This document shows, one piece after another, positions 41,304 to 63,768 of a stretch of 64,000 nucleotides of DNA; position 1 is the first letter of the stretch; the number at the start of each line of letters is the position of its first letter. The DNA lies in the IMG/VR virus record IMGVR_UViG_3300030685_000017, positions 1 to 64,000 of that record, one strand, 5' to 3'. The notes under the pieces are model-generated. The model was not told the DNA's origin. It searched no databases and was given only the letters and a program-made list of their open reading frames with translations. This DNA comes from a virus. A program made the translations under genes and the position numbers.

Positions 41304-41630
41304 ATGAAAAAAATGATATTTTCTTGGAAGAAGTTTTGTAATCATCGTTATAAAATGGGTGTTCATTGTAATACTTTGTCAGAAACAAAACAGTTTTGTG
41401 AATTATTAAATCGTCACGGATTAACATGGTGGACTGGTGATAGTTATTTAGAAGGTATTGAAGACAATTGGCAAAGATATAAAGATAGAGTAGTATTTAA
41501 TAATCAAGGAAGTGTAACCTGTTTAGAGAATCATCTTCCTAAAAGGATATATGAATTTTCTGAACTTATACCAGAAGATTTTAAATTTCAAACTGTACAA
41601 CAAAGAACTATGATAAGTCAGAAAGGATAA
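41304..41630 (+). CDS. family-A (VHCxT) protein with C-terminal FxT tag
   Basis: FSWKKF...VHCNT...HGLTW...YEFS; ends FQTVQQR. Confidence 0.85.
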   Translation: MKKMIFSWKKFCNHRYKMGVHCNTLSETKQFCELLNRHGLTWWTGDSYLEGIEDNWQRYKDRVVFNNQGSVTCLENHLPKRIYEFSELIPEDFKFQTVQQRTMISQKG

Positions 41631-41633
41631 AAT

Positions 41634-43023
41634 ATGAATAAAGTATCAGCAGAAATTGTTCAGCATAAAAATCGTCTTGAAGAAATTTTGGGTATGAAAA
41701 TTACTTTAAGTCAACTCTTTGCTATCCGCACTGGATGGAATGTCTTTTATGAAAATCCAGAAGTATACGGAGCTTCGTTAGTAACAGAAATGATTAAATT
41801 ATGTTTATCAAATCAGGAACAAAAGGAGTAAGAACATGAATAAAGATATGTGTTTAACTACTCAAGATCAATTTGTATTTGGGGAGTTGACAAAAGATGG
41901 AACAATTTTTGGTGATGAAATCACTCAACAGATTATTCCGGCTATACAAATAGTAGAAGATAGAATTAAAAGTTTTACTAATTCTGTCATTAATTTATTT
42001 ATTACAGAAAAAGAGTTTTATTCTTTCAATTTATCTGCTGTTATTATAGCATGTAAAGATTGTAATATACCATTAACTTTGTGGTATTATGATACAGTAA
42101 CTAATAACTATGTTTCAAAGGAGATTTTGTCATGACGCTTTCAATTTTCAATAAGAATGGTATTCGCAGAGAAAAACGCGAAGTAGCTTCAATTAAAGAA
42201 GCAAAGCAGATAAGGCATTCATATCTGCGTTTAGGATATCCGTGTCCTAAATTATTTGATGCCAATGGACAGGAAATTAAAGATTTCGCAATCTGTTGAT
42301 TGCAAGAAAGGGTAAATATGAAAGCTAAAATTGTTTCAACAATTTTGGTACTTGGTTTATGTATAGCAATACCAAATATGGTATCTGCTCATACTTCTGA
42401 ACGTTCCAGTTCTGTATTATATATTCATGGAACGTTTTATGATTACGGAGATATTTTTATCTCTGACTCTAGTGAAAAATGGAATATGACAGCCTTTGAT
42501 ATGCCGGAGTATTCATCAGGAACGACAGGAACGGTAGTATTTGACGGATATAATACATCATCTTTTAAAGATGATGATTTTATTACATCTTATCCTGATA
42601 ATTCTGTCTCTATTCCTTATCCTGCTGATTATATTCCCATAGAGGATATTGCAGAATATTCAGATGTTTCTGGTAATATTGTCCTTTACTTAAAGGATGT
42701 ATCATACAGAAATGATGATCCAAAAGACTTATCTTATTCAGAGATACTTAAAACAGTTAGCAAGCGGTAATCCGCTCACTATATAAAATTCAAAGTTAAA
42801 AGAAAGATTAAAGGTAATTAAAATGAAAAAAATCAAAGAGTTCGTAGACAGTTCAGAAGCGGTTCAGGTAACAGTAGCATTCCCGGAAATCGTTGGATCA
42901 GTAACAATACAGGAGATTGAACATCGTCCTACTCCAAAAGATCCACTGGTAAATTCAATCGGAAGAATGTTTAATTTCAAGGTTGATCACAGAACAGGTC
43001 AGGTATCTACAGCTCGTAGATAA
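41634..43023 (+). CDS. hypothetical genes (41634, 41836, 42132, 42318 with signal peptide, 42823)
   Basis: ORFs with RBS; 42318 has a Sec-type signal MKAKIVSTILVLGLCIAIPNMVSA. Confidence 0.7.
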
Positions 43024-43045
43024 ACGAGAGAGGGAGGATATTCAA

Positions 43046-43610
43046 ATGACAAAAGCTACATACAACGGAAGATTGAAAATAATTGCTTATCTTGAATCTT
43101 TCAAAGATAGTAATATAGGTAAAAAGATAGCAGAATTTTGTGCCTGTAATTCTCCCAAGCTTCTGAAAGAAATTAAAGTAATGGTACAGAAAAGTGAATT
43201 TGAGATATGGGTTCAAGATAATTATCCAAAACACGAATCCAGTGTAATGGAACCGTGTTTTTATGATGTGTTACAAAAGAAAATAGATACATATAAACAT
43301 AATTTATATATACAAAGATATACTAAAGCAATCGAAGAAACAAAAGAATTTTTGATAACTTTTAAAAATAGCGAAATAGGACTATTAATTGCTGATTTTT
43401 GTAAAAAAAAATACAAAAGATAAGTTAGAGGTTATTAAATCTAAGTTACTTGATTGTGGATTTACAATTAATATTATTTGCAAAAACAAACGAAAACCAT
43501 ATGCTTCTGATAATTATTTCACACTTGATTTACCGGAAGAAGTATTAAAAAGCAAAAAAAAATGCAGGATGTTTTTACTCTGGATTTATGTATTACTTCG
43601 ATTATTTTGA
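43046..43610 (+). pseudogene. internally repeated protein split at an A9 tract
   Basis: The second copy of the repeat FKxSxIGxxIAxFC continues (NTKDKLEVIK) only in the +1 frame after the A9 at 43403-43411. Confidence 0.6.
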
Positions 43611-43825
43611 TATTGAAGATGATATAAAAGCATATACAATCGAGGAGGAAAAAGAATTAAATCAGTTATTATATGGATTGGTGGAATTATTGTTGTAGTT
43701 GTAATAAGCCTTGCTTTATTATTTGGTACCGGTTACGCTGGGGTATTGTACACTAACGTAATTAGAACAAAACAGGCAAGTGCTAATAATAATACTGCCT
43801 AATCGGCTGATTATTAAATGATTTT

Positions 43826-44050
43826 AAATGTAAGAAAGGGTTGGGATTTGTAAAAAAATCGCCGAGAGCTAAAATGGGCGCTTTGGAAAATACGAGTAAA
43901 TTACCAACAGATTTGAGGGGTTATAGTTAAATGTGTAGTCATTTGTATAACCGCAAGATAAGTGAGGGAAATACTAGTTAGTAGCTAAAGTTAGTATAGT
44001 CCCCGTGGGTTGACTATACGAAAACGTGAAACATTACTTTTCTTACATTT
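43826..44050 (+). ncRNA. unassigned structured RNA, about 225 nt
   Basis: A 12-bp terminal stem AAATGTAAGAAA/TTTCTTACATTT encloses several hairpins; no ORF. Confidence 0.6.
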
Positions 44051-44262
44051 TTAATAAATATTATTTTACCTTGAAAGAGGAGAAAAAAGAAATGAAAATC
44101 GGATTACAAATTCGGCTGAATAACTATGGATATGGATAGTAAATGAATATTTATACATTGTGCTTGGCATCGTATGCTAAATAATAATTTTACAAATTAA
44201 AATGATAAAAATAAATGAAAAACGCTTTTAATTTGATTAAATTCGAAATAAAAGCGTTTTTA

Positions 44263-44335
44263 GGCTCTGTGGTCAAACGGATTAAGACGTTTACCTCTCC
44301 GGTAAAAATTGGGGGTTCGAGTCCTCCCAGAGTCA
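44263..44335 (+). tRNA. tRNA-Glu(CTC), atypical loop CTCTCCG
   Basis: Glu-type body (GGTCAA.CGG.TTAAGAC); anticodon stem TTTAC/GTAAA. Confidence 0.8.
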
Positions 44336-44358
44336 TTTAATCTTAGAAAGGATAATAA

Positions 44359-44664
44359 ATGGATACATTAAAATTTTCTTGGAATAAATTTTGTGATAAT
44401 TCTCATATGTGTGTCTGTTGTGTTACTGAATAAGAAGCACAGAAATTTTGTAAATTAATGGATAAACACGAATTAGAATAGGCTAACGGTGATAGTTACT
44501 TAAATCGTACAAGTTATTTATATCATCCAGAAAATATATGTTATTTTGAAGATGGAACAATGTCTAGTGCTATTTATGCCATTGACCATAATTCAGAATT
44601 CTATTATTATTCACAAATTTTTAAAGCTTCTGTTAATTTTCAAACTTTTAAAGAAAGGATATAA
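44359..44664 (+). pseudogene. family-A gene with two in-frame stops; tag FQTFKER retained
   Basis: TAA at 44431 and TAG at 44479 in an otherwise collinear family-A frame. Confidence 0.85.
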
Positions 44665-44682
44665 ATTGAATATATAATTTTC

Positions 44683-44754
44683 GGCTGATTAGTCAAGTGG
44701 ATAAAACATCACCTTCTCAGGGTGAAAACATGGGTTCAAATCCTATATCAGTCA
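44683..44754 (+). tRNA. tRNA-Glu(CTC)
   Basis: Cloverleaf; anticodon arm TCACC-TTCTCAG-GGTGA; one D-stem mismatch. Confidence 0.8.
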
Positions 44755-44774
44755 TAAAAAAGATTGGAGGAAAA

Positions 44775-45881: not shown

Positions 45882-45920
45882 TAAACATAAATAGATTTAT
45901 ATTTGAAAGGAATAATTATA

Positions 45921-46256
45921 ATGACAGATAATATTTCTTTTTGGGAACATTTCTTGAATTACAAAGAATTATCTATATGTACCATTGGTTTTAAACAGGC
46001 TGTTCATTGTAAAACAAAAAGAGAAGCAAAACTATTTTGTAAAATGTTGCATGAGCATGGTAGAAAGTGGTGTGATGGTTCTTCATATTTGTCTACAACA
46101 GAATTTTATTATTATGGAGATAATTCATATTATACTAATGATGGTCATGTTTTTGGTGGAATTTATGTGGAGCAAAAATATATTCCTATTTATGAATTTC
46201 ATGATATTTTTCCTATTAATATTGATTTTCAAACGATAAAACAAAGAGGAGTATAA
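45921..46256 (+). CDS. family-A protein with FxT tag
   Basis: AVHCKTKREAKLFC...HGRKWCDGSSY...YEF; ends FQTIKQR. Confidence 0.85.
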   Translation: MTDNISFWEHFLNYKELSICTIGFKQAVHCKTKREAKLFCKMLHEHGRKWCDGSSYLSTTEFYYYGDNSYYTNDGHVFGGIYVEQKYIPIYEFHDIFPINIDFQTIKQRGV

Positions 46257-46635: not shown

Positions 46636-46932
46636 GGGCACGCAAAGGTTTCGACAGGGATTAGAACATTATGATTTCGCTCGGTTGATCTCGTTATAGA
46701 TCAAAAAATAAATATAAACGCAAACAAATTACAAGCTGTAGCTTAATTGCTACTCCAAAAAACTTCCGAGATATTACTGGTAGGTTGTTGAGGATTAGAG
46801 ACAAGTAACAGTTTTCCTATTTATGAAAATGGGATGGTGGATTAGGCAGAATTCGTTTTCTCGCCCCTAAACAGCGTAAAGAATTATAAATAGTATAATC
46901 TTTGGACATGGGTTCGATTCCCATCGTGTCCA
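46636..46932 (+). ncRNA. ssrA: tmRNA, tag (A)ANKLQAVA
   Basis: 5' GGGCACG..AAAGGTTTCGAC and 3' GGGTTCGATTCCC..CGTGTCCA with a G3.U pair; resume codon GCA at 46720, TAA at 46744. Confidence 0.92.
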
Positions 46933-46955
46933 GTATAGTTTTACAAGGAGAATAT

Positions 46956-47189
46956 ATGAAATCTTTTAGAATGAAATGTATAGACAACAGAAATAATAAA
47001 ACTGATTATACAATAGGAAAAATATACATTGTTGTTAATGGAATTTTTATGACCGATGGAGAAAATCTAATGCCGACTAACTCATTTGAAGATTGGGAAT
47101 CTTATTCTAGTTCCATATGGGAATTATTACCAGATATTCCAAAAGAATTTTGTACCTTTAAAACTAGAAAGAGGAATATGAACTGTTAA
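46956..47189 (+). CDS. small hypothetical protein with FxT tag
   Basis: AAGGAG RBS; MKSFRMKCID...YTIGKIY; ends FCTFKTR. Confidence 0.8.
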   Translation: MKSFRMKCIDNRNNKTDYTIGKIYIVVNGIFMTDGENLMPTNSFEDWESYSSSIWELLPDIPKEFCTFKTRKRNMNC

Positions 47190-47206
47190 TTTCAAAAACA
47201 GATAAA

Positions 47207-47581
47207 AATATCTTAGAATACTATGAAGAATATTATAAGAATACATCTTATCGTTTAGCTCATTCTTTTTGTTTTATTTGTAATAGTAAGCATGATGTAA
47301 TTATTTTTATATCATGGTGTTTTAAAAATCATATTAAATTTTATGATAATATACAAGATCGAACAAATAAAGCAAAAGTATTAGATTTCTATATAAGACA
47401 ATATAATTATTGTATTAATATACAACATGAATCCTTAATAATAGCTCCAGATGGTGTACCTTATATTGGATGCGTTGGTAATATTTTTAATGTACATTTT
47501 TATGTAAAAGATTTAGCAAGAACCTTTTCACCGTTTGATACAATGAAAGAAAGAATGGTTTTTATGGGAGAGAGCAAATAA
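47207..47581 (+). pseudogene. start-less ORF ending in a tag-like FDTMKER
   Basis: About 120 open codons with no in-frame start; probably frameshifted at the 5' end. Confidence 0.6.
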
Positions 47582-47718: not shown

Positions 47719-48018
47719 ATGTTTAAAATAGGCTGTATGGTAAAAATAAAATCATGGGAAAAATTAACTAAAGAAAATACAATTAATGAAGATGGTGATA
47801 TTTTATTATACAATTCAAATGATTATTTCTTTAAAGAAGATAGACAATTATGTGGACAAGTATGTGTTATAGAAAAAAATATAAGCAGATTATGGAAAGG
47901 ATACATAAAAATTAAAGTATTAAAAACAGGAGTAATAAAAATAAGACCTTGGCAGATACTTGAACATTATACTATTAATCCTTTATTTAAAACTTTTAAG
48001 GAAAGAAGAAATGAATAA
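47719..48018 (+). CDS. family-B (FKxGxxVKIKSW; KOW/SH3-like) protein with FxT tag
   Basis: MFKIGCMVKIKSWE...EDGDI; ends FKTFKER. Confidence 0.85.
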   Translation: MFKIGCMVKIKSWEKLTKENTINEDGDILLYNSNDYFFKEDRQLCGQVCVIEKNISRLWKGYIKIKVLKTGVIKIRPWQILEHYTINPLFKTFKERRNE

Positions 48019-49072: not shown

Positions 49073-49080
49073 AGAAATGT

Positions 49081-49159
49081 GTGTCCTTAACTCAATCGGG
49101 AGAGTAGTCGGTTTTATATAGACAAACAGGCTATTTGGGTTCGAATCCCAAAGGATACA
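49081..49159 (+). tRNA. aberrant tRNA-like element (irregular anticodon arm; TTA in one possible fold)
   Basis: Good acceptor, D and T arms; the anticodon stem is imperfect and has two alternative folds. Confidence 0.55.
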
Positions 49160-49161
49160 TT

Positions 49162-49589: not shown

Positions 49590-49663
49590 GGGACTATAGC
49601 CAAGAGGTTAAGGCACAAGACTCTGTTTCTTGCAGTTCGTTGGTTCGAATCCAACTAGTCCCA
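49590..49663 (+). tRNA. tRNA-Gln(CTG), pyrimidine at position 37
   Basis: Cloverleaf; anticodon arm CAAGA-CTCTGTT-TCTTG. Confidence 0.85.
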
Positions 49664-49690
49664 TTAGTAAGAAAAGAAAGGAGTATTGAA

Positions 49691-49969
49691 ATGGAATTTT
49701 CATGGGAATATTTTTGTAATGATAATGAAATGGTAGCGGTTCATTGTCCTACTCCAGAAAATGCAAGAAAGTTTTGCAGATTAATGTCTGAACATAATTT
49801 AGTATGGCAGACCGGACGTAATTATTTGGGTAAAAATTTGTGGTATGATCACAAAGAAAAAACTTGTTATACTAATCAAGGTTCTTATTTATCTCTTGAA
49901 GATGCTTATAGTAATTATAATATTTATGAATTTTCAGAAGTAATGCAGGTAGAAGAAAATGACATATAA
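49691..49969 (+). CDS. family-A protein (no tag)
   Basis: MEFSWEYF...AVHCPT...YEFSEV. Confidence 0.85.
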   Translation: MEFSWEYFCNDNEMVAVHCPTPENARKFCRLMSEHNLVWQTGRNYLGKNLWYDHKEKTCYTNQGSYLSLEDAYSNYNIYEFSEVMQVEENDI

Positions 49970-50276
49970 ATTTAAGGTTGGAGATAAAGTTATTTTTAAA
50001 ACATGGAATGAGATGGAAAAAGAATAAGGAATTAATGAAGATGGAAATATTTGTGTACCATGTACATTTATGCGTGAGATGGAACGATCATCATATGGAA
50101 GAATTTTTATTATAACAAGTCAAGAAATAGATAATTATACTTTTAATGGGGAATCATGTCAATTTATAGAATTAACTCCAAATACAGGCTATTCTATTAG
50201 TGCTCAAATGTTAAAACCTGTTATTCCTTTTATTCCCTTTATGACTTTTAAAAATAAAATGAGGTATTCAAAATGA
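49959..50276 (+). pseudogene. family-B gene with an in-frame TAA; tag FMTFKNK
   Basis: MTYKFKVGDKV...MEKE*GINEDG; TAA at 50025 where paralogs have Tyr. Confidence 0.85.
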
Positions 50277-50560
50277 TTTATACTTTTAAAGTTGGAGATA
50301 GAGTTAAGTTTAAATCTAACGAACAAATGTATGGGGTTAAGTGCCCTTCTGGATTTACTAAAGAAATGGGAGATACATTAGGCGGTAAAGAATCTATAAT
50401 TCTACGTATACATCAGGAAAGAGGATATCAATATATTGATATTTCGATGGGTAAAAAACCATATGTAGCATGGAATTTTGATAATTCTATGTTTATTCCT
50501 GTTCCACATCATTTATCTTTTATGACTTTAAAAGAAAAAAGAACAATTTCAAAAAGATAA
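50273..50560 (+). CDS. family-B protein with FxT tag
   Basis: FKVGDRVKFKS; ends FMTLKEK. Confidence 0.85.
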   Translation: MIYTFKVGDRVKFKSNEQMYGVKCPSGFTKEMGDTLGGKESIILRIHQERGYQYIDISMGKKPYVAWNFDNSMFIPVPHHLSFMTLKEKRTISKR

Positions 50561-51285: not shown

Positions 51286-51922
51286 ATGAACAAATGGCTT
51301 AAAGAATATGATAAAGGAAAATATTATAAGCATATGGGTATTATTTGTTGTAATGCAGTTCAAGTTACACAAGTATATCAACATAATATACGTTTACGTC
51401 CATTTTTTCATTCTTATGATTTAGAAAAAATGTTAGAGATACTTTCACGTTATGGTATTATAATTATTACAAATCTCAATACCTATTGTGCTACAATATT
51501 AAGTGCAGAACGTACTTATGATATAGTTAAAAAGTATGAAGATGTATTTGAAAAACGTTCTTCTGAATTTCAGACGTTTAGGGAGAAACTGCATGAATAA
51601 ATTATTAAAAATATATACTGATTGCCCAAAAGATCATATGGGCATATGTTGTGTCACGGAAGATCAAATGTTTCGAGTTATGGAGTATAATAGAAATCAT
51701 CATTTGGATTGTCAATCTAATTGTCAATCTACTTCTAATAGATCTTTAAAACAAATATTACATGAGTATAACATGATTATAATAACAAATAGAAATACTT
51801 TTTGCGTTACAATGGCACATGCATCTTTTTGTTATGATACAATATTTACATTTAAAGATGTGTTTACAAGAACAGTTAAACCAGATTTTTTAACTTTAAG
51901 AGAAAAGATAGAATTAAAGTAA
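51286..51922 (+). CDS. tandem paralog pair (51286-51600, 51593-51922), both with FxT tag
   Basis: Shared MNK.LK.Y...HMGI.C...IIITN.NT.C; end FQTFREK and FLTLREK. Confidence 0.85.
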
Positions 51923-52046
51923 GAATAAATCTTTGATTTCATATTGTGATTATGTGATTTATGAATTTTCTGATATTAATAAAATTAATTCTGATTTTTT
52001 TAACCATGAAGAAAAGAAAAGAACTTTAATTGAATATATAATTTTC

Positions 52047-52142: not shown

Positions 52143-52574
52143 ATGTCATTATTATCAATAATATTGGAGATTTTTTTATATAATATAATAATAATTAGTA
52201 TTTTTTGTTCTTTGAATATTAAAATAAAAGATTATTATAAAGCAAAAACTGATCTTTTTGCATATCTGAATAATGATAATGCTATTTATATGGTTTATAA
52301 ACGTGGATTAATGATACATGGTAAGCATTATAAATATTTAATTGGAGATAAATTTAGATTTGGTAATAATTATGCTATAATAACTGGTTATGATCATTCA
52401 GAATTAGAACTATATGGAGATCTTTATTATATAGTAGAACAATGTAATTCAATGGGGATATCTATTTCTAGTGAATTCTGTATATCAGAAAGAACATTAT
52501 CTCAAGCACAATGGATAAATAAACCAAATAAAAAAGAAGAATTTAAAACCTTTAAGGAGAAAATACGAACATAA
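52143..52574 (+). CDS. membrane-anchored protein with FxT tag
   Basis: N-terminal TM segment; ends FKTFKEK. Confidence 0.8.
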   Translation: MSLLSIILEIFLYNIIIISIFCSLNIKIKDYYKAKTDLFAYLNNDNAIYMVYKRGLMIHGKHYKYLIGDKFRFGNNYAIITGYDHSELELYGDLYYIVEQCNSMGISISSEFCISERTLSQAQWINKPNKKEEFKTFKEKIRT

Positions 52575-52925: not shown

Positions 52926-53045
52926 AAATCTGCGAAAGCAGTTTTTTATATAGTAATTGTAGACGGGATTTCTTGATGAAAAGGAGGTTTGCTATGAAGG
53001 GTATTAGAGCACCTAGCATTTTTAGAAAAGTTTTATAAAAAGTAT

Positions 53046-53074
53046 TGACAAAGTAACCGAAACGTGGTAAAATG
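53046..53074 (+). promoter_or_regulatory. near-consensus sigmaA promoter
   Basis: TTGACA-17 bp-TAAAAT with TG. Confidence 0.88.
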
Positions 53075-53126
53075 AACTTACAAAAACAAAGAGCAAAAAG
53101 CTCGCCTAAAAATGGAGGAAATAATT

Positions 53127-53888
53127 ATGTCTAAATCAAAAGAAGTTGGATTCGTAAAAGTTGCACTGGTAAAAATTCTGAAAGCTGATGGAAGTGATTT
53201 TGTTACATCTAAGTTTGCAATTGCTTCTTCAATCGCTGATACTGTATTTGCAGGTTCTCTTGTAACCGTAACTGGTGAGTACAGTGATACTCCGGTACGT
53301 GTCGCAGAAGTTATTACTGCCGATGAGTGTGCAAGAAGATACAAGAATTCCGTGTACAATCATGTTGTATCTCTGCTTAATCCTGATTATGTGGATGACG
53401 ACGAGATTATCGGTCTTACCGCAGAGGATGCTAACACATTTGTACCGGCAAAAGACAAGAAAATCGCTCTTATCTGCGTTATGAAAGCTGATGGTATCAA
53501 GTGGACAAACTACAAACTTGCTATTCCGGCAAGAATGCCTGTAAAAGCAGGAGACATTGTTACAAATGATCTCTTTGACGGTTCTTATCTCAGAGTTCGT
53601 GAGGTAATTACAGCTGACGAGTGCGCTCGTAGATACGAGAAACCGGTAACACATGCAGTACATTCTGTTGTTGTTGATGTACCGGCTGGAGAGAAAGTAT
53701 ATGGTTTGACTCCGAGTGAGAGACCTGAGGATATTGAAGCGGCTACTAAGGCAAGAGATGCGAGAGCATATACTAAAGTTGATCGCAGAACACCAATCTC
53801 TATCGACTTTTCTTCTGTTGGAGAGACAAGTAGAGAAGACGCAATTGTTGCTATCGTTCTTGCGGCAATTGATGCTCTCAAAGATTGA
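53127..53888 (+). CDS. protein with two tandem repeats of about 100 aa
   Basis: KADG...AI...AG...RV.EVITADECARRY occurs twice; GGAGG RBS; own promoter and terminator. Confidence 0.85.
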   Translation: MSKSKEVGFVKVALVKILKADGSDFVTSKFAIASSIADTVFAGSLVTVTGEYSDTPVRVAEVITADECARRYKNSVYNHVVSLLNPDYVDDDEIIGLTAEDANTFVPAKDKKIALICVMKADGIKWTNYKLAIPARMPVKAGDIVTNDLFDGSYLRVREVITADECARRYEKPVTHAVHSVVVDVPAGEKVYGLTPSERPEDIEAATKARDARAYTKVDRRTPISIDFSSVGETSREDAIVAIVLAAIDALKD

Positions 53889-54026: not shown

Positions 54027-54338
54027 ATGTCTGAACAATTTAAAATTGGAGAACGAGTATGAATAAAATCTTGGAAAGAATTAATTAAAGAGTTTCCGTT
54101 AAGAGATTCGACTACTGTATCAATTTATAATAACGTGACAGAATCACATTTATATACGTTTTATACTAAAAATTTTATTGATTTATACAAATATGGGAGA
54201 ATAATTACAATTCAAGATTCATGGAAGGATAGAACTAATGTAATTATTAAAACTGAAATTGAAACAATAATTATTGATATGAAATTAATAACTAAAATAA
54301 ATCCTATATTTATAACATTAAAGGAAAGAAGAAAATAA
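54027..54338 (+). pseudogene. family-B gene with an in-frame TGA; tag FITLKER
   Basis: MSEQFKIGERV*IKSWKEL; TGA at 54060. Confidence 0.8.
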
Positions 54339-54339: not shown

Positions 54340-54675
54340 ATGAAAATTATCTTAGAAAAACAATTTTGGGAAGAATTTTTAAATCAAAATAATGATATTG
54401 TTGTTTGTTGTCATACAAAAATAGAAGCAGAAACATTCTGTAAATTAATGCACGAACATGGATTAAAATGGAAAAGTGGTAACAGTTATTTAGATATTAA
54501 TAGGTGGAATAATCTATGTATTGATAAAAAATATAGTGTTAATTATACTAATCACGGATGTTACGGTACTTGTCTGGATTTTGAAAAGAGACATGACTAT
54601 ATGATTTATGAATTTTCTGATATTATATTTAAAAAAAATATTTCTTTTTTAACATTAGCTCAAAGGAGTTTATAA
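54340..54675 (+). CDS. family-A protein with tag FLTLAQR
   Basis: FWEEF...CHTKIEAETFC...HGLKWKSGNSY. Confidence 0.85.
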   Translation: MKIILEKQFWEEFLNQNNDIVVCCHTKIEAETFCKLMHEHGLKWKSGNSYLDINRWNNLCIDKKYSVNYTNHGCYGTCLDFEKRHDYMIYEFSDIIFKKNISFLTLAQRSL

Positions 54676-54678: not shown

Positions 54679-54999
54679 ATGATTAATTTAGAAATCTTTT
54701 GGAAACAATTTTGTGATCGTCATAATCATATAGCTGTTAATTGTGTTACTGAATAAGAAGCACAGAAATTTTGTAAATTAATGGATAAACACGAATTAGA
54801 ATGGGCTAACGGTTGTTGTTATAATACAGAAAATACAGGATGGAATTGTTATAATAAATCTATGTGTTATAGTAACAGCGGAACATACTGTAACCTAGAT
54901 GGCTATCGAGTACGTCATTATACTATTTATAAATTTTCTGATATATTTATTACAGATAATTCTAAATTTATGACTGTAAAGCAGAGGAATACAAAATGA
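54679..54999 (+). pseudogene. family-A gene with an in-frame TAA; tag FMTVKQR
   Basis: TAA at 54754, in a segment identical to 44418-44479. Confidence 0.85.
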
Positions 55000-55322
55000 T
55001 AAGTCAAGAGGAATTTTGGAAAAAATTTTGTGAACAAAGATTTCATATGACCGTTCATTGTAAAACAGAACAACAAGCACAACAATTTTGTCAAATGATG
55101 AAAGAGCATGGATTAACATGGAGATCAGGGAATGAACACTTAAAAAATAACACTTATTGGGAAGATTATAAAGAAGATACATGTTATTCTAATGATGGTG
55201 GCTATGGATTTATGGAGTTTTATACAAATTGTGATTATGTGATTTATGAATTTTCTAAGATATTTATTACAAAAAACACTATGTTTATGACTTTTAAGCA
55301 AAAATCATATAAATGCGGATGA
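54996..55322 (+). CDS. family-A protein with tag FMTFKQK
   Basis: VHCKTEQQAQQFC...HGLTWRSG. Confidence 0.85.
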   Translation: MISQEEFWKKFCEQRFHMTVHCKTEQQAQQFCQMMKEHGLTWRSGNEHLKNNTYWEDYKEDTCYSNDGGYGFMEFYTNCDYVIYEFSKIFITKNTMFMTFKQKSYKCG

Positions 55323-55372: not shown

Positions 55373-55684
55373 ATGCATAAAATATTTACGATAGAAAAAT
55401 TTGTGAAAGAAAAAGATAAGCATAAAATGGCTATAATTTGTAAAACAGAGAATGAAGCAAAATTACTTTGTAAAGAACTTGATAAACAGGGGCTTTGTTG
55501 GAGTACTGGAGTGAGTTATGTTGGTAATACTAGGTGGTCTCTATTTAGTCCACAAACTAGAGCTAGATTTTATACAAATAATAATAAAATAGGTATTATT
55601 GGTAACGGAGATATGGAAGGTTTAGATTATTGCTTTTTTACAGAAACTCGAATGAAAAATAGAATTTCAAACATTTTCAAATAG
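55373..55684 (+). CDS. family-A protein; tag present but out of frame
   Basis: AIICKTENEAK; the +1 frame after the A5 at 55655 reads EFQTFSNR. Confidence 0.8.
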   Translation: MHKIFTIEKFVKEKDKHKMAIICKTENEAKLLCKELDKQGLCWSTGVSYVGNTRWSLFSPQTRARFYTNNNKIGIIGNGDMEGLDYCFFTETRMKNRISNIFK

Positions 55685-55789
55685 ACAAGAAAATTCTAAA
55701 TTATAATATAGTTATTGTTCCTGTTATTCTTATAAAATCTAATAATAATGATAATGTGTTTTTTCAAACTTTTAAAGAGAGGATATAGA

Positions 55790-56098
55790 ATGCACACTTT
55801 TACAGCAGGTCAGAAAATAAAAATAAAAAGTTTAAAAAAATTAATAAGACAGTATGGTACAGTACAAAGTATAACTGTCCTTGGTATGAAAACATTTCTA
55901 AATTTACCGGAACGTTCTATGACTTTAGATTATATATCTTGGGTATATGGGTATGAAAAACATTATACAATCATACGTAAAGTGGAATGCGCATATTATG
56001 AAGTAAAAGAACTTTCTAGTGTACATCTAATTCCCGTATCGTTAATAGAACCATGTAATAATTTAAACTTTCAGACTTTTAAAGAAAGGACTGGATAG
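55790..56098 (+). CDS. family-B protein with tag FQTFKER
   Basis: FTAGQKIKIKSL...YG. Confidence 0.8.
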   Translation: MHTFTAGQKIKIKSLKKLIRQYGTVQSITVLGMKTFLNLPERSMTLDYISWVYGYEKHYTIIRKVECAYYEVKELSSVHLIPVSLIEPCNNLNFQTFKERTG

Positions 56099-56102: not shown

Positions 56103-56441
56103 ATGACTAGTTTTAAATTTTGGAAAAATTTTAATGATCAAAATTTAGATATCATGATTTCTGTAAAAAATGTATTAGAATATTTTGCTTTATGTAAATT
56201 ATTAACTGATAAAGGATATCATCATGCGGGTGGTGCAAGTTATTTAGAATATGCGTTACAAAACGCAATTACTCATGGAGAAATGCGGGGAATATCTAAT
56301 CATGGATTATATATGATGGCAAGAGTTCCTGCGAATATGTATCGTTATACCATTTATGATTATGAAACAGTCCTATCTTTTATAGGATTAGAAAACACAG
56401 ATTTTTGTACTTTTAAAGATAAAATAAAAGTACTTAAATAG
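56103..56441 (+). CDS. divergent family-A protein with tag FCTFKDK
   Basis: FWKNF...GASY...SNHG...YTIYDY. Confidence 0.8.
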   Translation: MTSFKFWKNFNDQNLDIMISVKNVLEYFALCKLLTDKGYHHAGGASYLEYALQNAITHGEMRGISNHGLYMMARVPANMYRYTIYDYETVLSFIGLENTDFCTFKDKIKVLK

Positions 56442-58551: not shown

Positions 58552-58583
58552 AAAAACCGATAGCATAATTACTATCGGTTTTT
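58552..58583 (+). terminator. intrinsic terminator
   Basis: AAAACCGATAG/CTATCGGTTTT inverted repeat. Confidence 0.75.
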
Positions 58584-58644
58584 GCGCTTTCAAATATATA
58601 TAATAGTTATGTATATTTTAGAGCGCAAAATAGAAAGGGTATAT

Positions 58645-61158
58645 ATGGAAAATTTTACTTGGGAGTGGTTTAAAGATCAAAAACAGTCAAAAGCCATTAT
58701 ATGTCACGCATATAATGAAACAGTTATTTTATTTAAGATGTTAGACGCTCTAAATTTAGGTTGGGGATGGAATTTACCTGATAGATCTACAGATGAGATT
58801 ATTGATCCTTACTCTAAGTACAATCCTTGGACAATTGATAGTGATTGTTTATATGTAGATAATAAGGGTGATGCCGTACATACATTAAAATCTGCATTAG
58901 AGCGTTATGAAATTATTATTGATTTTAAAGATATACCGATAGAACTTAAAAATGAATTTTATGATAAACCTATTTTAAATTCTAATAACTTTTTCCAGAG
59001 ATTCGTGGCAGAAAGTTTTAATATAGGAATAACATGTACAAATAAAAAGCAATTTTTACAATTTTTAGTGCTGATTGTTGAAAAGCATCCAGAAATTATT
59101 TTGGATGAATTTTTAAATACACATTTTAATGAAATTATACAAGAAGCTTATTCGGAAGTTAATCGAGTTGCCGCATATAAAAAATATTATTTTTATTGCG
59201 TTTATAATACAGATGATCAGAATATTTGTTATGTGGGATATATTTATGATGAAGATATTAATGGCTTACAATTATGGGAAAAGTTAAATCATTTATATGA
59301 TTTTTATGAAGTATTTCCATATATAACAGAAAGGGTAAATGAGATGAAAAAAGAACATGATGTACCATTTTCTTGGGAAGATTTCTTTAATGATAGTAAT
59401 TATTATTACGTTTATTGCAAAACAAGACAGGAGATATCACAATTTTTTGATTTTCTAATTCAAGCCGGAATAGCTACGTATGTAGAACTGGAAGAAATGA
59501 TTAAAGATAGAGAAGTATTTTTAAATCAGGTTTTAGACGGATCAAAAAATGGTATACTGGTAGATAACCGCGGTGCATGGTACAGTTATCGAGATATAGA
59601 TGCAAGAGATAAATATGTCTATACTTTCGAAGAAGTACTTGAAAACAGTAAGGGAGAACAAATGGACTTTAATCAAGTAGACGAAGTAATAAAGAATGGA
59701 GAAATAGAAATGGATAATACAGAAGAAGTAAAAGAAAAAGAAGTAACAGAAACAAAAGCGACGGGAACTGAAATTACTATAAATACAGTAGTGGATAAAG
59801 AATTACCAATAAAAAATACAGCTTATTCAAGTAAATGTTGGAAAATGAAAGTTACAGCAATTTCTGCTATATCAACAGCTCCAATAGGTAGTGTAATTTT
59901 AAATAAAATTTATGAAGTAAAAGATGGAATTATAATATTGGAAAATGGGATTAAGGCTAAAAAATCTTATTTTTCATATTATAATTTTCATACAGAAGAT
60001 ACAGATTATGGAGATAAGGCTGGTATATCTTGGCAATATATTTATAATTATACAGATACGAAAAAAGAAAAGAAAAAAGAAAAAGTTGTTGACACAGGTA
60101 TACCTTGTAATAAATTTCTTGAAAGATGTTTTAGACCAAAACAGGATAAGCTAAAAGAACAACTTATTAAAGATCTGAAAGAAGTGGGATATGCTCCGAT
60201 AGTTGGTGATGGATATATTTATGCTGTGGGAGATTTTCCTGTTCTTTTAACAGCACATATGGATACGGTTCATAAAAGTGCTCCATATGTAATTGCTATG
60301 GGATATTTAGAAAGAGATAAAAAGAAACTAACTGGAGTAATGTCTCCTCAAGGAATAGGTGGGGATGATCGTTGTGGTATTTATATGATTTTACAATTAG
60401 TGAAAACATATAAATGTTCTATACTTTTTTGTGAAGATGAAGAAATTGGTTGTGTAGGAGTTAAGAAATTTATAAAGTCAATGCCGGGAGTAGTAAATAA
60501 TTTAAAAATTCAATGTAATTATATAATTGAACTTGATCGTAAAGGCAGTGATGATGCTGTATTTTATAATTGTGATAATAAAGATTTTGAGACCTTTATC
60601 ACAACTAAAACTAAATTTAAAAAAGCTTTCGGATCTTGTTCTGATATATCTTATCTTGCACCAGCGGTAGGACTTGCGGCAGTAAATTTCAGTTGTGCTT
60701 ATTATAATCCTCATACGGATGATGAATATGTACTTTTGGAAGAGTTGGAAGAAAATATAGAGGAAATTAAAAAACTTCTTACCATATCAGAAACCTGTGG
60801 CGCATATGATTATATAGAAAAAACTTATAATTATGCCGGTGGTAAAGGTTATACAAATAATTATCATAATTATAATGCAGATGATGCTTATGATGCTGAA
60901 GAGGATTATGCTAAAAGTTATTTCAAACCTGTTAAAGCTACAAAGAAAGATAAAAAGTCTTCTGTTATAAATAAATCAAAACCGAAATCTATTCCTGCGG
61001 ACACTTTAGATATCACTATGGAAGTAATATTTTTTCGTTCTGGTATTGAAACCACTACAGAAGTATCTGGATTCACTAAAGCAGAACTTTGGTTTAATTT
61101 TTTCATGGATAATCCAGATATCTGTTATAACGATGTCTCAGATTACAGTATTTTTTAA
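58645..61158 (+). CDS. M20/M28-type Zn peptidase with N-terminal family-A-like repeats
   Basis: AHMDTV, GGDDRCG, EDEEIG, ELDRKG, SDI and YYNPHT motifs; three FxW/FF...C.T-type domains at the N-terminus. Confidence 0.85.
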   Translation: MENFTWEWFKDQKQSKAIICHAYNETVILFKMLDALNLGWGWNLPDRSTDEIIDPYSKYNPWTIDSDCLYVDNKGDAVHTLKSALERYEIIIDFKDIPIELKNEFYDKPILNSNNFFQRFVAESFNIGITCTNKKQFLQFLVLIVEKHPEIILDEFLNTHFNEIIQEAYSEVNRVAAYKKYYFYCVYNTDDQNICYVGYIYDEDINGLQLWEKLNHLYDFYEVFPYITERVNEMKKEHDVPFSWEDFFNDSNYYYVYCKTRQEISQFFDFLIQAGIATYVELEEMIKDREVFLNQVLDGSKNGILVDNRGAWYSYRDIDARDKYVYTFEEVLENSKGEQMDFNQVDEVIKNGEIEMDNTEEVKEKEVTETKATGTEITINTVVDKELPIKNTAYSSKCWKMKVTAISAISTAPIGSVILNKIYEVKDGIIILENGIKAKKSYFSYYNFHTEDTDYGDKAGISWQYIYNYTDTKKEKKKEKVVDTGIPCNKFLERCFRPKQDKLKEQLIKDLKEVGYAPIVGDGYIYAVGDFPVLLTAHMDTVHKSAPYVIAMGYLERDKKKLTGVMSPQGIGGDDRCGIYMILQLVKTYKCSILFCEDEEIGCVGVKKFIKSMPGVVNNLKIQCNYIIELDRKGSDDAVFYNCDNKDFETFITTKTKFKKAFGSCSDISYLAPAVGLAAVNFSCAYYNPHTDDEYVLLEELEENIEEIKKLLTISETCGAYDYIEKTYNYAGGKGYTNNYHNYNADDAYDAEEDYAKSYFKPVKATKKDKKSSVINKSKPKSIPADTLDITMEVIFFRSGIETTTEVSGFTKAELWFNFFMDNPDICYNDVSDYSIF

Positions 61159-61260
61159 GAAAGAGGTGATATAATGGGTGGAGATAAAACAGTAGGTGGC
61201 TATATTTCTGACATTGATCGTGGTTAAATAATGTATCACAAACATTGTTAAAATTGGAGT

Positions 61261-61326
61261 ACTTAGTTGGTCTAAATGGAAGGACGCTTATGCGTAGAAA
61301 CGTGAGTTCGATTCTCACACTGAGAT
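61261..61326 (+). ncRNA. tRNA-like element with a truncated anticodon arm
   Basis: Acceptor CTTAGT/ACTGAG, D arm GTCT/GGAC, T arm GTGAG-TTCGATT-CTCAC; only a 2-bp anticodon stem. Confidence 0.65.
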
Positions 61327-61342
61327 TATTGGAGGTATATAA

Positions 61343-61678
61343 ATGAGACAATTTAAAGTTGGACAAAAAATTAAAATTAAAAAATTAGAAGAATTAAAAA
61401 AGTATGGTGAAATAGACTGTGATGGTAATTTACGTTTTTATGATAGTGAATGTTATTTTATACGGAAAGATGAATATAAAGCAATAAAAAATAAATATAT
61501 GACCATTACAGATATTCATTATGGTATAAAACAGAAGGGACTTCAATATTTAGGTTTTAACGCAGAAAAAGAATATGATGGATTTTTAACAAATGAAATG
61601 GTAACAACATCAACAAGTGAAAGTCCTTTCTTTATGACTTTCAAAGATATTATACTGAGAATAGATAATGAAAAGTGA
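61343..61678 (+). CDS. family-B protein with tag FMTFKD
   Basis: FKVGQKIKIKK...YGEIDCDG. Confidence 0.85.
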   Translation: MRQFKVGQKIKIKKLEELKKYGEIDCDGNLRFYDSECYFIRKDEYKAIKNKYMTITDIHYGIKQKGLQYLGFNAEKEYDGFLTNEMVTTSTSESPFFMTFKDIILRIDNEK

Positions 61679-61997
61679 TATGAATAAATTTATAGAGCGT
61701 AAAGATGATATTGAAATACTTGTTACAACAAAAGATCAAGCAAGAATTGTTTGTAAATTTATGAAAAGATTAGGTTGGACATGGGAACACGGAACATCAT
61801 ATAATAATACTTATTGGTCTGAATGTATTTCAAGGGTGTATTATGATAATCATGGGGGCGCACATACCGTTCCACATAGTTTGTCAAAAACCACTATTTC
61901 GTTTCAAGAATTTATAGAATTTTTAATATTTTCTAAACATAAGAATTTTTTAACTTTTAAAGAGAAAGAAGAATATACAAATTTTATAAATAGTTAA
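61668..61997 (+). CDS. divergent family-A protein with tag FLTFKEK
   Basis: GWTWEHGTSY...YYDNHG. Confidence 0.8.
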   Translation: MKSDMNKFIERKDDIEILVTTKDQARIVCKFMKRLGWTWEHGTSYNNTYWSECISRVYYDNHGGAHTVPHSLSKTTISFQEFIEFLIFSKHKNFLTFKEKEEYTNFINS

Positions 61998-62021
61998 TAT
62001 AATTAGACAGGAGAGACTACA

Positions 62022-62915
62022 ATGAAATATATAGAAAGATTAAATTATAACAATAAAATAACCATTAAATTAGTGATACCAAGTTCATGTAATGCTCATT
62101 GTCAATTTTGTTATATGAATGATTATAAAGATATAATGAAAAATAATCAACAAGAATTTTTAAATCATTTTATTGATTCTTTGAATTATCTATTAAAAAA
62201 GATCAATAATAAAGATTCTGTGTCTTTAGATATTACTGGAAATGAACCTACATTTGATATAGAATTATTAATAAAAGTATTAAATATGTTGAAGCAATAT
62301 AATATTCAAGATAAAGTTTCTAGGGTTACATTTACAACAAATGGATTTAATCTATTAAAAGTAATTCCATATTTTAAAAATGTGATTAATTATGTTAATA
62401 TTTCAATGCATCATTATAATCAGGAAGAAAGAAATAAAATATTCAAAACGAATACTCCTTCCAATTATGATTATAAATTAATGGTAGATAAATTAGCAGA
62501 TATTGGAATAAAAACATCTTCTACCTGTGTAACATATAAATCTATTGAAAATTTTAAAAAGTTTATGAATATTTATATATCTTTTTGTAAAGAAATTGGT
62601 TTTGTTTCTGTTAGATTTAGGGATAATGTTTTTTGGAAAGATAGTCAATTTGATATTTATATGAATTTAGCTTTGAATGATGATCAATTTGAAGTTATTC
62701 AGTGTGAGAATACTTCCGATAGTAAATGGTGCAGACTTAAAATGAAAGATAAATTTAGAGTCTTTTTTTTACATGGAGTAAAAGATACTTCTTCTGTAAG
62801 TAAAGGAATAGAATATGTAATTGCAGATGATGGAAAATGTTATACTGATTTTTATAAAAAAGAATCGATAGAAAATTATAAATTGTTAATTGGTAAAATA
62901 TACGATATTAAGTGA
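62022..62915 (+). CDS. radical SAM protein
   Basis: CNAHCQFC (CxxxCxxC), TGNEP and TTNG motifs. Confidence 0.9.
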   Translation: MKYIERLNYNNKITIKLVIPSSCNAHCQFCYMNDYKDIMKNNQQEFLNHFIDSLNYLLKKINNKDSVSLDITGNEPTFDIELLIKVLNMLKQYNIQDKVSRVTFTTNGFNLLKVIPYFKNVINYVNISMHHYNQEERNKIFKTNTPSNYDYKLMVDKLADIGIKTSSTCVTYKSIENFKKFMNIYISFCKEIGFVSVRFRDNVFWKDSQFDIYMNLALNDDQFEVIQCENTSDSKWCRLKMKDKFRVFFLHGVKDTSSVSKGIEYVIADDGKCYTDFYKKESIENYKLLIGKIYDIK

Positions 62916-62930
62916 ATGGAGATATAAAAT

Positions 62931-63446
62931 ATGTATAAAAAATTACAATTGATTAAAAATATATATGTAATAGATGCACAAGAAGAAGAAACAGATTTAA
63001 TGATTTACGGAAATATTTCTTTTAAAAGACAAAATCGTAATCATTTTACATTTGTAGTTGGACAAACATATGATTATAAATCAGTTGAGAATGGTATCAT
63101 TATTTTTTCAGATAATCAAAGAAATGATAATGAATTTAAAATTTTGATTCCACAAAAACGAATATTACAGTATGTTTGTGTAAATTAAAAAAAAGGATGA
63201 ATTATTATGACAAAAAGACAAAATGAAAATTTGGATAATTGTTCAAAAGAACAATTAATTAATATAATTAAACAAATGTATTCTAATGAATTTTCGATTT
63301 CTGAAATTTTAATAGATGCTTCTAAACAACATATAGATAATGATGTGGCTTTAGAAAAAATAAGACTACATTTATACAATAATAGTTTTGATTTTTCTAT
63401 TTCTATACCAGAACAAATCAAATATTTTTTAAAGATAAGGAAATAA
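62931..63446 (+). CDS. hypothetical genes 62931 and 63207
   Basis: ORFs with GGAG/AAGGA RBS. Confidence 0.7.
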
Positions 63447-63450
63447 TATT

Positions 63451-63768
63451 ATGATAAATCCATCTAATACTTATTTTTTTAAAGAAGGAGATATGGTAAC
63501 TATAAAATCATGGTCAGAGATGGAAAAAGAATATGGAACTTTTTTTGGGAATATTTGTACACCTTGTCGTTTTAGGCGGGATATGGAATCTTTATGTGGG
63601 TATAGTTTTATAATAAAGGGTATCACAAATTCGCATAGTAATAGATTTGGAAAATATCAAACATTTTTGTTTAAACGTCGTTATTTTATTGATAATTGGA
63701 TGCTTAAACCGTATAAAAGAACAGAATTTATGACATTTAAAGAAAAGTTAAAGGTGGAATTATTATGA
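63451..63768 (+). CDS. family-B protein with tag FMTFKEK
   Basis: FKEGDMVTIKSWSEMEKEYG. Confidence 0.85.
   Translation: MINPSNTYFFKEGDMVTIKSWSEMEKEYGTFFGNICTPCRFRRDMESLCGYSFIIKGITNSHSNRFGKYQTFLFKRRYFIDNWMLKPYKRTEFMTFKEKLKVELL

Follow-up and report, generated by a model that had tools for sequence, protein, structure and literature searches.

Tagged genes and remnants in the window

About 33 small proteins of one uncultured phage (genome, 124,607 bp), or roughly one gene in five, end in a short tag, F-x-T-F-K-E-R, and appear to represent eight or more unrelated families. In the window (the whole 64,000-nt stretch of DNA analyzed here), all the tagged genes lie on the + strand. Family A is represented by genes at 41304-41630 (tag FQTVQQR, 41586-41606), 45903-46256 (FQTIKQR, 46227-46247), 54340-54675 (FLTLAQR, 54646-54666), 54996-55322 (FMTFKQK, 55284-55304), 56103-56441 (FCTFKDK, 56403-56423), and 61668-61997 (FLTFKEK, 61947-61967). 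The SH3-like family B has genes at 47719-48018 (FKTFKER, 47986-48006), 50273-50560 (FMTLKEK, 50519-50539), 55790-56098 (FQTFKER, 56069-56089), 61343-61678 (FMTFKDI, 61631-61651), and 63451-63768 (FMTFKEK, 63727-63747), and another from 63765 that crosses the window end at 64000 (FQTLKNR, genome position 64050). Family C is a pair, with the first member at 51286-51600 (FQTFREK, 51568-51588) and the second at 51593-51922 (FLTLREK, 51887-51907). Three carriers are singletons: a gene at 46902-47189 (FCTFKTR, 47148-47168), an open reading frame (ORF) at 47168-47581 with no ATG, GTG, or TTG start (FDTMKER, 47534-47554), and a gene with a hydrophobic N terminus at 52143-52574 (FKTFKEK, 52542-52562). 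The tag array extends about 11 kb beyond the window end, with eleven further tagged genes past the one starting at 63765, up to 75.3 kb.

An earlier sequence-only reading of this DNA had listed 20 tag endings and three remnants, and every one was found at its place. Three of the listed carriers are not intact genes, however: the one given from 49959 is a family B copy (49965-50276; FMTFKNK, 50238-50258) with an in-frame TAA at 50025, that from 54679 a family A copy (54682-54999; FMTVKQR, 54967-54987) with a TAA at 54754, and that from 54027 a family B copy (54036-54338; FITLKER, 54309-54329) with a TGA at 54060. A fourth broken carrier, with an in-frame TGA at 74091, lies past the window end. 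The broken copy at 49965-50276 directly follows an untagged family A gene (49640-49969).

Shorter traces also remain. A remnant ORF at 44560-44664 with a family-A-like end (FQTFKER, 44638-44658; 52 open codons) is followed by a tRNA-Glu gene; FLTMK (51997-52011) stands 13 codons past a stop; FQTFSNR (55665-55685) is in the +1 frame at the end of an untagged family A gene (55373-55684); and FQTFKERI, followed by a stop, lies in a 33-codon open stretch (tag, 55762-55782) just 5' of the family B start at 55790. Two larger proteins are untagged. The first (858 amino acids [aa]; 58582-61158) has an N-terminal part that clusters with family A and a C-terminal M20/M28-like metallopeptidase. The second (535 aa; 39691-41298) has family-A-like sequence and Met-rich repeats, with a weak tag look-alike, NPFQTMFGA, from 41197, 33 residues before its end.

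Position and conservation of the tag

We scanned the window in all six frames with the pattern F-x-T-[FLVIM]-[KRAQ]-[EQDNT]-[RKI] and obtained 22 matches. Twenty-one of them, starting at 41586 to 63727, are on the + strand and in the coding frame, each with a stop codon 1 to 9 residues beyond the tag; the last is a chance match at 13973, immediately after a stop. Genome-wide, 25 of the 27 matches have at least 40 open codons before them and a stop within 10 residues. A test of position and frame bias against shuffled AT-rich controls had been proposed; in simulated DNA, 100 first-order Markov runs gave a mean of 1.94 matches (maximum, 7), with a mean of 0.03 near a stop (maximum, 1). With degenerate copies included (FLTFSDR, FQTFSMK, FETFNER, FMTYKER, and FMTL before a stop), there are 33 instances, all at 41.5 to 75.3 kb. 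In the tagged region, 28 of the 70 called + strand genes have the loose core F-x-T-[FLVIMY] within their last 22 residues, compared to 2 of 111 genes outside that region. Within the 181 called proteins, the six-residue form was found nowhere other than at the C-terminal places of the tag.

In full, the consensus reads N-x-x-F-[MQL]-T-[FL]-K-E-[RK], with 1 to 9 unconserved residues after it. Phe and Thr are kept in 32 of 32 copies (Thr is never Ser, and Phe is never Tyr) when conservation is assessed among paralogs of one genome, where duplication in families A and B carries the tag along. Information content has a three-base period: 1.1 to 1.2 bits per base in the Phe codon, 1.15 and 2.54 bits at the AC of Thr, and 0.09 to 0.57 bits at wobble bases. 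As the sequence-only reading had noted, all four Thr codons occur (17 ACT, 9 ACA, 4 ACC, and 3 ACG; genome usage, 42, 43, 8, and 7%), in line with their usage across the genome. Position 2 is Gln in 9 copies, Met in 7 or 8, and Leu in 7, amino acids whose codons have no bases in common. Beyond the 21 bases, only an Asn at -3 is conserved (15 of 32); the flanks are not. We also searched both strands of the 124.6-kb genome with a DNA profile, at a threshold retaining 29 of the 32 tag copies; the only additional site on either strand was the frameshifted remnant at 55665. These are the properties of a short linear peptide motif rather than of a nucleic-acid element. It is the peptide that is under selection, as the earlier reading had suggested from the codons and the constant frame; the codon periodicity, the Thr codon usage, and the near absence of out-of-frame copies bear this out.

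Part of the motif carries a load at the RNA level too. The Arg at position 7 is encoded by AGR in 20 of 20 cases, where about 6 or 7 CGN codons would be expected (CGN makes up 33% in the genome), and AAG, GAG, and AGG are overrepresented in the tag, which points to a role as the ribosome-binding site of the next gene. The K-E-R purine run (AAR GAR ARR) doubles as the next gene's Shine-Dalgarno sequence in about 8 to 10 of 33 cases; the downstream Shine-Dalgarno sequence alone does not explain the K-E-R codons. These features, and the survival of three or four copies in short or broken ORFs, would suit a 21-base element that enhances ribosome binding or translational coupling, serves in RNA processing, or marks a cassette recombination boundary, and that is translated only incidentally, but we regard this as the least probable reading, and a very improbable one: all 33 copies are in frame before a stop, with none intergenic or on the opposite strand; the next start codon is anywhere from 4 to 164 nt away; and neither the wobble bases nor the middle codon is constrained as DNA, while position 2 favors Met, Gln, and Leu as amino acids. 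The unconserved flanks argue against a longer recombination module, and the window encodes no RNA complementary to the 21-base element.

Carrier families and their relatives in other phages

The carriers are small accessory proteins, quick to duplicate and decay. With the tag stripped, hhalign gave a probability of at most 21% over 55 family pairs, and BLAST clustering agreed. At the level of sequence, the carriers thus form at least eight families without detectable homology, in keeping with the sequence-only reading, which had described them as unrelated. In the family B alignment, the sole invariant columns are the Phe and Thr of the tag, and the tag is the best-kept part of the carrier proteins.

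Homologs of the two big families, A and B, were found to be without the tail in other phages, a check that the same reading had suggested. Among the 149 best family B representatives (from 1.84 billion proteins), no tag occurs beyond those of the tagged phage itself, and a Ruminococcus phage homolog of family A is also tagless. Five related phage records have 0 or 1 pattern match each, compared to 11 in the tagged genome. The tag was therefore probably gained in a single phage lineage and is limited to it.

Families A and B are joined in single proteins of other phages (P0016, P0125, and P0130). In the tagged phage, the untagged 858-aa protein indicates that the same modules exist without the tag when they are fused to an enzyme. 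Taken together, these fusions suggest that the family A and B modules work together.

A candidate docking peptide and its alternatives

We modeled one family A protein (54996-55322) and one family B protein (63451-63768) with AlphaFold. The tag falls in a low-confidence C-terminal tail (pLDDT, 51 to 69 over the tag versus 85 to 94 in the domains), and a short helix begins at it. The predicted layout is one of small folded domains followed by a flexible C-terminal tail that bears the tag.

We infer, with about even confidence, that the tag serves as a docking (address) peptide and that one common partner reads it. The tail would be free in solution, with the invariant Phe and the hydrophobic position 4 as anchors and the invariant Thr capping a short amphipathic helix (T-x-x-E); a partner gripping this peptide would handle the whole varied set of proteins together. 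The leading candidate partner, named tentatively and still rather doubtful, is the procapsid interior: by analogy with the capsid-targeting sequence (CTS) of phage T4, the tagged set might be loaded into the head and then injected. The tagged genes are, against this variant, among the early or replication-side + strand genes, outside the structural block, and a family A homolog of a small temperate phage also lies in a nonstructural region. A tag look-alike that ends the putative protease/scaffold protein of the tagged phage (F-S-V-A-K-E-N) has no Thr at the invariant position and came to light post hoc. The next candidates would be a protease or some other hub of the host, or else a hub of the phage itself, holding single domains together; in other phages, the same domains are covalently fused.

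The T4 CTS occupies the N terminus and is cleaved off by the prohead protease. T4 internal proteins are a diverse set with only the CTS in common (PMC3012670), so the earlier statement that no described phage system resembles this one was too strong as to kind. Both the CTS and the tag are short conserved peptides, the sole common feature of diverse, fast-evolving small phage proteins that are, or in our case may be, addressed as a group (PMC3012670); the phage tag differs in being C-terminal and unrelated in sequence. Encapsulin cargo-loading peptides and the capsid-targeting end of the HK97 maturation protease resemble the tag in being short, C-terminal, and flexibly linked. Those peptides dock varied cargo on the inside of an HK97-fold shell, whereas the tag has another sequence and a linker of only about 4 to 8 residues, and for it the capsid protein would be a hypothetical receptor. 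The same order of parts, with a variable binding domain joined by a flexible linker to a short C-terminal docking peptide common to the group, is seen in the protease adaptor SspB, whose C-terminal tethering tail binds ClpX, and in viral adaptors such as the poxvirus ankyrin/PRANC proteins, with their common ligase-docking end; the tag has no sequence likeness to either.

A seven-residue motif might also be a modification or turnover signal. As a degron, the tag would expose the whole early set to a host or phage protease and keep it short-lived, clearing early functions on schedule. C-terminal degrons are well known in phage proteins, and the tag is on an exposed, flexible C-terminal tail bearing aromatic and basic residues, in small accessory genes of the nonstructural part of the genome. 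The phage also encodes its own tmRNA, which puts C-terminal tagging for proteolysis in play in this system. We nevertheless consider turnover unlikely. The tag lies 1 to 9 residues from the C terminus and is followed by unconserved residues, which is a misfit for a signal that reads a free C terminus at a fixed distance; a Thr that is never Ser is stricter than loose protease degrons usually require; and no protease shows a connection to the tag.

Unlikely to a similar degree is that the tag is a leftover of the conserved C-terminal block of domain X (phrog_22292) that has no partner and is retained only to cap a helix, for the sake of folding or solubility. T-x-x-E is a classical helix-capping box. 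Domain X ends many A/B fusion proteins of other phages; among the 149 best family B relatives, 9 have LF-x-[S/C/T]-[I/V]-[K/Q]-W-x-D-x-E-P-C-E-F-R-K-[F/Y]-I, or a sequence close to it, as their end, and one such end, LFQTIKW, overlaps the tag over five positions and is likewise near the C terminus. This likeness is limited to five residues and was noticed post hoc, and tblastn detected no other domain X sequence in the genome (best E value, 0.04). The tag is also better kept than the protein bodies, across differing folds, which a need for folding alone can hardly explain.

Covalent modification, with F-x-T as the substrate motif of an enzyme, is very unlikely. The enzyme could be a kinase or other Thr-modifying enzyme, or the radical SAM protein encoded among the tagged genes (62022-62915), acting with the metallopeptidase encoded at 58582-61158. 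FxSxx-COOH systems pair a radical SAM/SPASM enzyme and a metallopeptidase with variable small proteins that bear a conserved C-terminal peptide (PMC7159879), and the invariant F-x-T, whose Thr is never Ser, fits the aromatic-X-X3 layout of three-residue cyclophane (triceptide) motifs (PMC11499958). Unlike in those systems, the phage tag is not at the very end, and the peptidase belongs to another clan, being M20/M28-like rather than zincin-like. In the radical SAM protein (297 aa), only the three cluster Cys residues are invariant and one more nearly so, which indicates that it has no SPASM-type Cys set; it scores far below all NCBIfam cutoffs, with 19 matches, none to an FxsB-type family. Its family is tightly conserved and occurs at 66 IMG/VR phage loci, and the 20-kb surroundings of these loci contain no tag system (0 or 1 chance match each; 62 of 66 have none). 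A radical SAM enzyme linked to the tag was accordingly rejected (66 loci with the enzyme, 0 with the tag system). Of the 18 phage loci at which ORFs were read, 17 have the peptidase as a standalone protein and the 18th a spurious 51-aa ORF, and no tags were found at the 27 loci scanned (L110 plus 26 peptidase loci). In the relative L111, the radical SAM gene adjoins RtcB.

Occurrence and conservation of the C-terminal tag

A six-frame scan of the window for F-x-T-[FLVIM]-K-[EQ]-[RK] (typically F-x-T-F-K-E-R), the peptide that the sequence-only reading had described as a shared ending of small phage proteins, returned 22 matches. Twenty-one of these lay between 41586 and 63727, all on the plus strand and 1 to 9 residues before a stop codon. 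The whole genome contained 27 strict matches (33 when degenerate copies were counted), and all 33 copies fell between 41.5 and 75.3 kb, in agreement with the earlier remark that no such ending was seen on genes from 1 to 41 kb. Dinucleotide-matched simulated sequences gave a mean of 1.94 motif matches. Near-stop matches following 40 open codons numbered 0.03 in the simulations versus 25 observed, which supports a shared C-terminal tag. Within the region, 28 of the 70 called plus-strand genes have a loose four-residue core among their 22 C-terminal residues, compared with 2 of 111 genes elsewhere in the genome. Apart from the C-terminal copies, the six-residue form was absent from called proteins.

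The evidence points to selection acting on the peptide, as had been proposed from the sequence. The 21 underlying bases show a clear three-base conservation period, with codon positions 1 and 2 kept and the wobble position nearly free. The wobble base of the Thr codon matches the codon usage of the genome, and position 2 favors Gln, Met, and Leu, whose codons have no common bases. Phe and Thr are invariant (32 of 32 copies), and position 4 is hydrophobic in every copy. The copies are also locked in frame: when both genome strands were scanned with a DNA profile built from the tag copies (threshold keeping 29 of 32), no copies were found between genes, in other frames of intact genes, or on the other strand. 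The single extra site was a +1-frame tag at the end of an untagged gene of family A (with family B, one of the two largest tagged families), which marks it as a frameshifted remnant. The flanks of the tag are unconserved except for a frequent Asn three residues upstream.

The residues that follow the motif are mixed, leaving 5 to 13 residues after the Thr, and the stop codons of the tagged genes (TAA, 20; TGA, 9; TAG, 3) are used as in other genes. It is unlikely that the tag is a degradation signal. Whereas ssrA-like degrons lie at a fixed C-terminal distance and have conserved last residues, the tail here comprises 1 to 9 unconserved residues, which argues against a degron read at the free carboxyl end. 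The same short tail, with no hydrophobic span, differs from a sortase LPXTG-like signal, which combines a hydrophobic span with a basic tail.

Carrier proteins, their relatives, and the possible origin of the tag

After removal of the last 18 residues, BLAST clustering separated the carriers into family A (12 members, 8 of them tagged), family B (10 members, all tagged), three pairs, and singletons. Two short "singletons," at 50070 and 54135, were identified by tblastn as fragments of family B. In a profile comparison of 11 tag-stripped groups, no pair exceeded 21% probability. With the two fragments reassigned, these comparisons indicate that the carriers belong to at least eight unrelated families, as the earlier claim of unrelated carriers would have it.

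AlphaFold predicted compact domains for families A and B (mean pLDDT of 82 and 79, respectively), followed by a tail with a pLDDT of 51 to 69 in which a short helix starts at the tag. The sole invariant columns in the family B alignment are the Phe and Thr of the tag. Family B is weakly SH3-like (Foldseek E of about 0.03; Pfam SH3_15 below the cut-off on relatives). Family A had no clear match among solved structures (best Z, 4.3) and matched viral predicted structures of unknown function.

Genes in the tagged array arise and decay rapidly. In four family A or B paralogs, the reading frame is broken by a stop codon (TAA at 50025 and 54754; TGA at 54060 and at genome position 74091), and three or four tags are located in short remnants. 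The tag also closes a 138-codon open frame (47168-47581, plus strand) in which ATG, GTG, and TTG are all missing upstream of the tag. At 47168, this frame has a good ribosome-binding site, AAGAGGAA, followed by a CTG at 47184 that may be an unusual start.

Among 1.84 billion proteins, we found 2,258 representatives of family B at E values up to 0.001; within the best 149 of these, the tag occurred only in this phage's own proteins. A family A homolog in Ruminococcus gnavus phages has two domains in 198 aa and no tag, and five more distant phage relatives have 0 or 1 matches to a pattern that matches this genome 11 times. Homologs thus lack the tail, a point raised by the sequence-only reading, and by these comparisons the tag was acquired within this narrow lineage.

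Elsewhere among phages, A and B occur as parts of a single fused chain (B-A-B-X or A-B-X; e.g., the homologs P0016, P0125, and P0130). Many of these chains end in domain X (phrog_22292), an uncharacterized domain whose final block is strongly conserved. This block, LF-x-[S/C/T]-[I/V]-[K/Q]-W-x-D-x-EP-CEFRK[F/Y]I, was present in 9 of the best 149 family B representatives and overlaps the tag at five positions. The overlap may hint at the origin of the tag, or it may be due to chance. It also favors reading the tag as an inherited vestige, which we consider quite improbable. An ESM Atlas search with the X domain gave no lead.

Searches for close relatives yielded a single 76-base match in the phage collection and no relatives in IMG/VR (676-aa protein as the query) or in metagenome contigs (676-aa protein and DNA polymerase). 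With the polymerase as the query, IMG/VR contained one 11-kb contig (57% identity) without tags. Word-based homolog searches with families A and B returned only this phage's own proteins. The DNA pattern of the tag matched at least 104 stretches in IMG/VR, with a single match in each among the matches listed. Among these listed matches, the peptide was near an open reading frame (ORF) end at 18 loci (three unrelated proteins, one per locus), and none of the 18 had a tag array.

Proposed docking and candidate partners

The tag is a lineage-specific, peptide-level C-terminal short linear motif, borne on a flexible tail by many unrelated small proteins. Docking is the most economical mechanism, and we give docking in general an even chance. 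The Phe and the hydrophobic residue at position 4 would be the anchors for the partner, the Thr and Glu would form a helix-capping box, a known arrangement of these two residues, and a single partner would grip all tagged proteins. A connector role fits two observations: other phages join these domains covalently, and in this phage the domains carry no tag when they are fused to an enzyme.

Short address peptides common to diverse proteins are already known as a kind. Encapsulin cargo peptides and the HK97 protease tail are precedents for procapsid loading. The T4 capsid-targeting sequence is a further precedent, for procapsid loading by a common peptide (PMC3012670). Like that sequence, the tag is a short conserved peptide common to unrelated small proteins (here, 33 copies in at least eight families). 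The T4 sequence, however, is N-terminal and is cut by the prohead protease at hydrophobic-x-Glu, whereas the tag is C-terminal; a hydrophobic-K-E triplet occurs in the sequence of 18 of 32 tag copies. Our search of the open-access literature on shared C-terminal motifs of phage early proteins found nothing relevant. Judging by that search, neither the tag sequence nor its C-terminal placement has been described, and the same is true of its carriers and of its scale, about one phage gene in five. As applied to the kind, the earlier statement that no phage system like this has been described goes too far.

Within the docking estimate, loading into the procapsid is the leading, though tentative, option; the rest is shared by a phage hub and by a host protease or another host hub. 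A 568-aa gene in the protease/scaffold position (9585-11291, minus strand) encodes a protein whose N-terminal third resembles annotated prohead proteases of Tsamsa-like Bacillus phages; Pfam found no family in this candidate. Its C-terminus (..GFSVAKENTKRASYSGLFEKSK) is a weak look-alike of the tag, F-S-V-A-K-E-N, in which the Thr is absent and which was noticed post hoc.

More doubtful is the idea that the carriers form an arsenal of binding modules, small and quick to diversify, among them the SH3-like family B and family A, each plugged by the tag into one machine, either a host AAA+ protease or the procapsid. In the former case, the phage would send chosen host (defense) proteins for destruction; in the latter, the arsenal would be injected along with the DNA. 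Noncovalent docking would in this lineage replace the covalent domain fusions of related phages, and the arsenal would be a phage counterpart of eukaryotic viral adaptor families with one common docking end.

The tagged array shows that a phage lineage can convert multidomain proteins into a kit of single domains with one common connector. If one partner reads the tag, about a fifth of the phage genes are under the control of one handle of seven residues, and a peptide pull-down or mutation of the Phe or Thr would open a large block of "hypothetical" accessory proteins. The tag could also become a portable handle for protein loading or steering in phage engineering.

Two enzymes encoded among the tagged genes were considered as readers of the tag: a 297-aa radical SAM protein (62022-62915, plus strand) and a metallopeptidase that forms the end of an 858-aa untagged protein (58582-61158). 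Their presence recalls the FxSxx-COOH and three-residue cyclophane systems, which pair radical SAM and metallopeptidase enzymes with small proteins that vary in sequence and share a conserved aromatic-X-X motif close to the C-terminus (PMC7159879 and PMC11499958). The tag likewise places an aromatic-X-X3 motif in a conserved C-terminal peptide (F-x-T, 32 of 32). Unlike in FxSxx-COOH, the motif is not at the extreme C-terminus, and no cognate radical SAM/SPASM maturase travels with the tagged proteins. The radical SAM protein has no conserved auxiliary Cys set and scores far below all NCBIfam cut-offs. Its family is tightly conserved (about 300 aa; mean column identity, 62%) and occurs at 66 IMG/VR loci (L111 to L176) on contigs of 7 kb to 361 kb from large uncultured phages. 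No tag system was found in the 20-kb surroundings of these loci (zero matches at 62 and one chance match at 4), and we rejected the enzyme as the tag partner. That the tag is a modification site is very unlikely. At L111, the radical SAM gene adjoins an RtcB-like RNA ligase gene, and an RNA-related role for the family is possible.

In FxSxx-COOH systems, a zincin-like metallopeptidase frees the C-terminal peptide. The metallopeptidase here is M20/M28-like (PepT-like, with weak NCBIfam matches; phrog_4191 and phrog_34186). The peptidase is standalone in 17 of 18 phage loci with ORFs read (the 18th is a spurious 51-aa ORF), and no tags occurred at 27 scanned loci (L110 and 26 peptidase loci). 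Only in this phage is it fused to untagged family-A-like modules. Prediction of a complex between the peptidase domain and the C-terminal 44 residues of one family B protein gave no verdict (score, 0.00) and is neutral on binding.

RNA-level features and gene layout

An RNA-level trace remains in the tag: in roughly 8 to 10 cases, the purine run of the K-E-R codons doubles as the ribosome-binding site of the next gene, and the Arg codon is always AGA or AGG. Even so, a nucleic-acid element is highly improbable given the three-base period, the unconserved flanks, and a tag-to-next-start distance of 4 to 164 nt with all 33 copies in frame. That spacing and frame, with no intergenic copies, argue against a Shine-Dalgarno or translational-coupling element; the downstream Shine-Dalgarno sequence, raised earlier as a possible explanation, overlaps some tags but fails as the sole cause. 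No RNA complementary to the tag is encoded within the window, and an antisense RNA reading was rejected. A programmed -1 frameshift at T-TTT-AAA was rejected on inspection of the sequence, since the -1 frame runs straight into a TAA.

The window covers the initial 64 kb of one contig of 124,607 bp (28% G+C) from a large tailed phage with a 2,763-aa tape-measure protein, terminase, DnaE-type polymerase, RecD/Dda-like helicase, and ribonucleotide reductase. Its major capsid protein shares about 31% identity with the counterparts in large Bacillus, Lactococcus, and Clostridioides siphophages. This uncultured phage is present in public runs labeled peat metagenomes; no RNA runs were among the public runs listed as containing it. 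Structural genes lie on the minus strand at both contig ends, and the plus strand from 26 to 101 kb has replication genes and a long series of small genes, tRNAs, and a tmRNA (46636-46935, plus strand; full-length Rfam match, 91.8 bits; ARAGORN-predicted tag peptide ANKLQAVA). A plus-strand tRNA with anticodon TTA (49080-49160), which would read the TAA stop codon, is surrounded by five tRNA-Glu(CTC) and two tRNA-Gln genes (44263, 44683, 45810, 52047, 53935, 49340, and 49590). Read-through fusion by this tRNA was rejected, as stop usage in tagged genes is ordinary and the in-frame stops of broken copies are both TAA and TGA.

A promoter scan of this AT-rich DNA was uninformative (135 sites versus 130 expected). 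In the interval 53045-53888, the best promoter-like site on the plus strand of the region (TTGACA, 17 nt, TG, TAAAAT) is upstream of a G+C-richer gene, which encodes a 258-aa protein with two similar halves and no database family. The phage's own RtcB-like RNA ligase gene (genome 67897-68787; L004 7897-8787) encodes only 296 aa and covers positions 57 to 339 of a profile with 459 positions, so that a truncated or split gene is possible. A 535-aa protein (39691-41298, plus strand) combines family-A-like sequence with striking Met-rich repeats (..NPMMMAMMM..).
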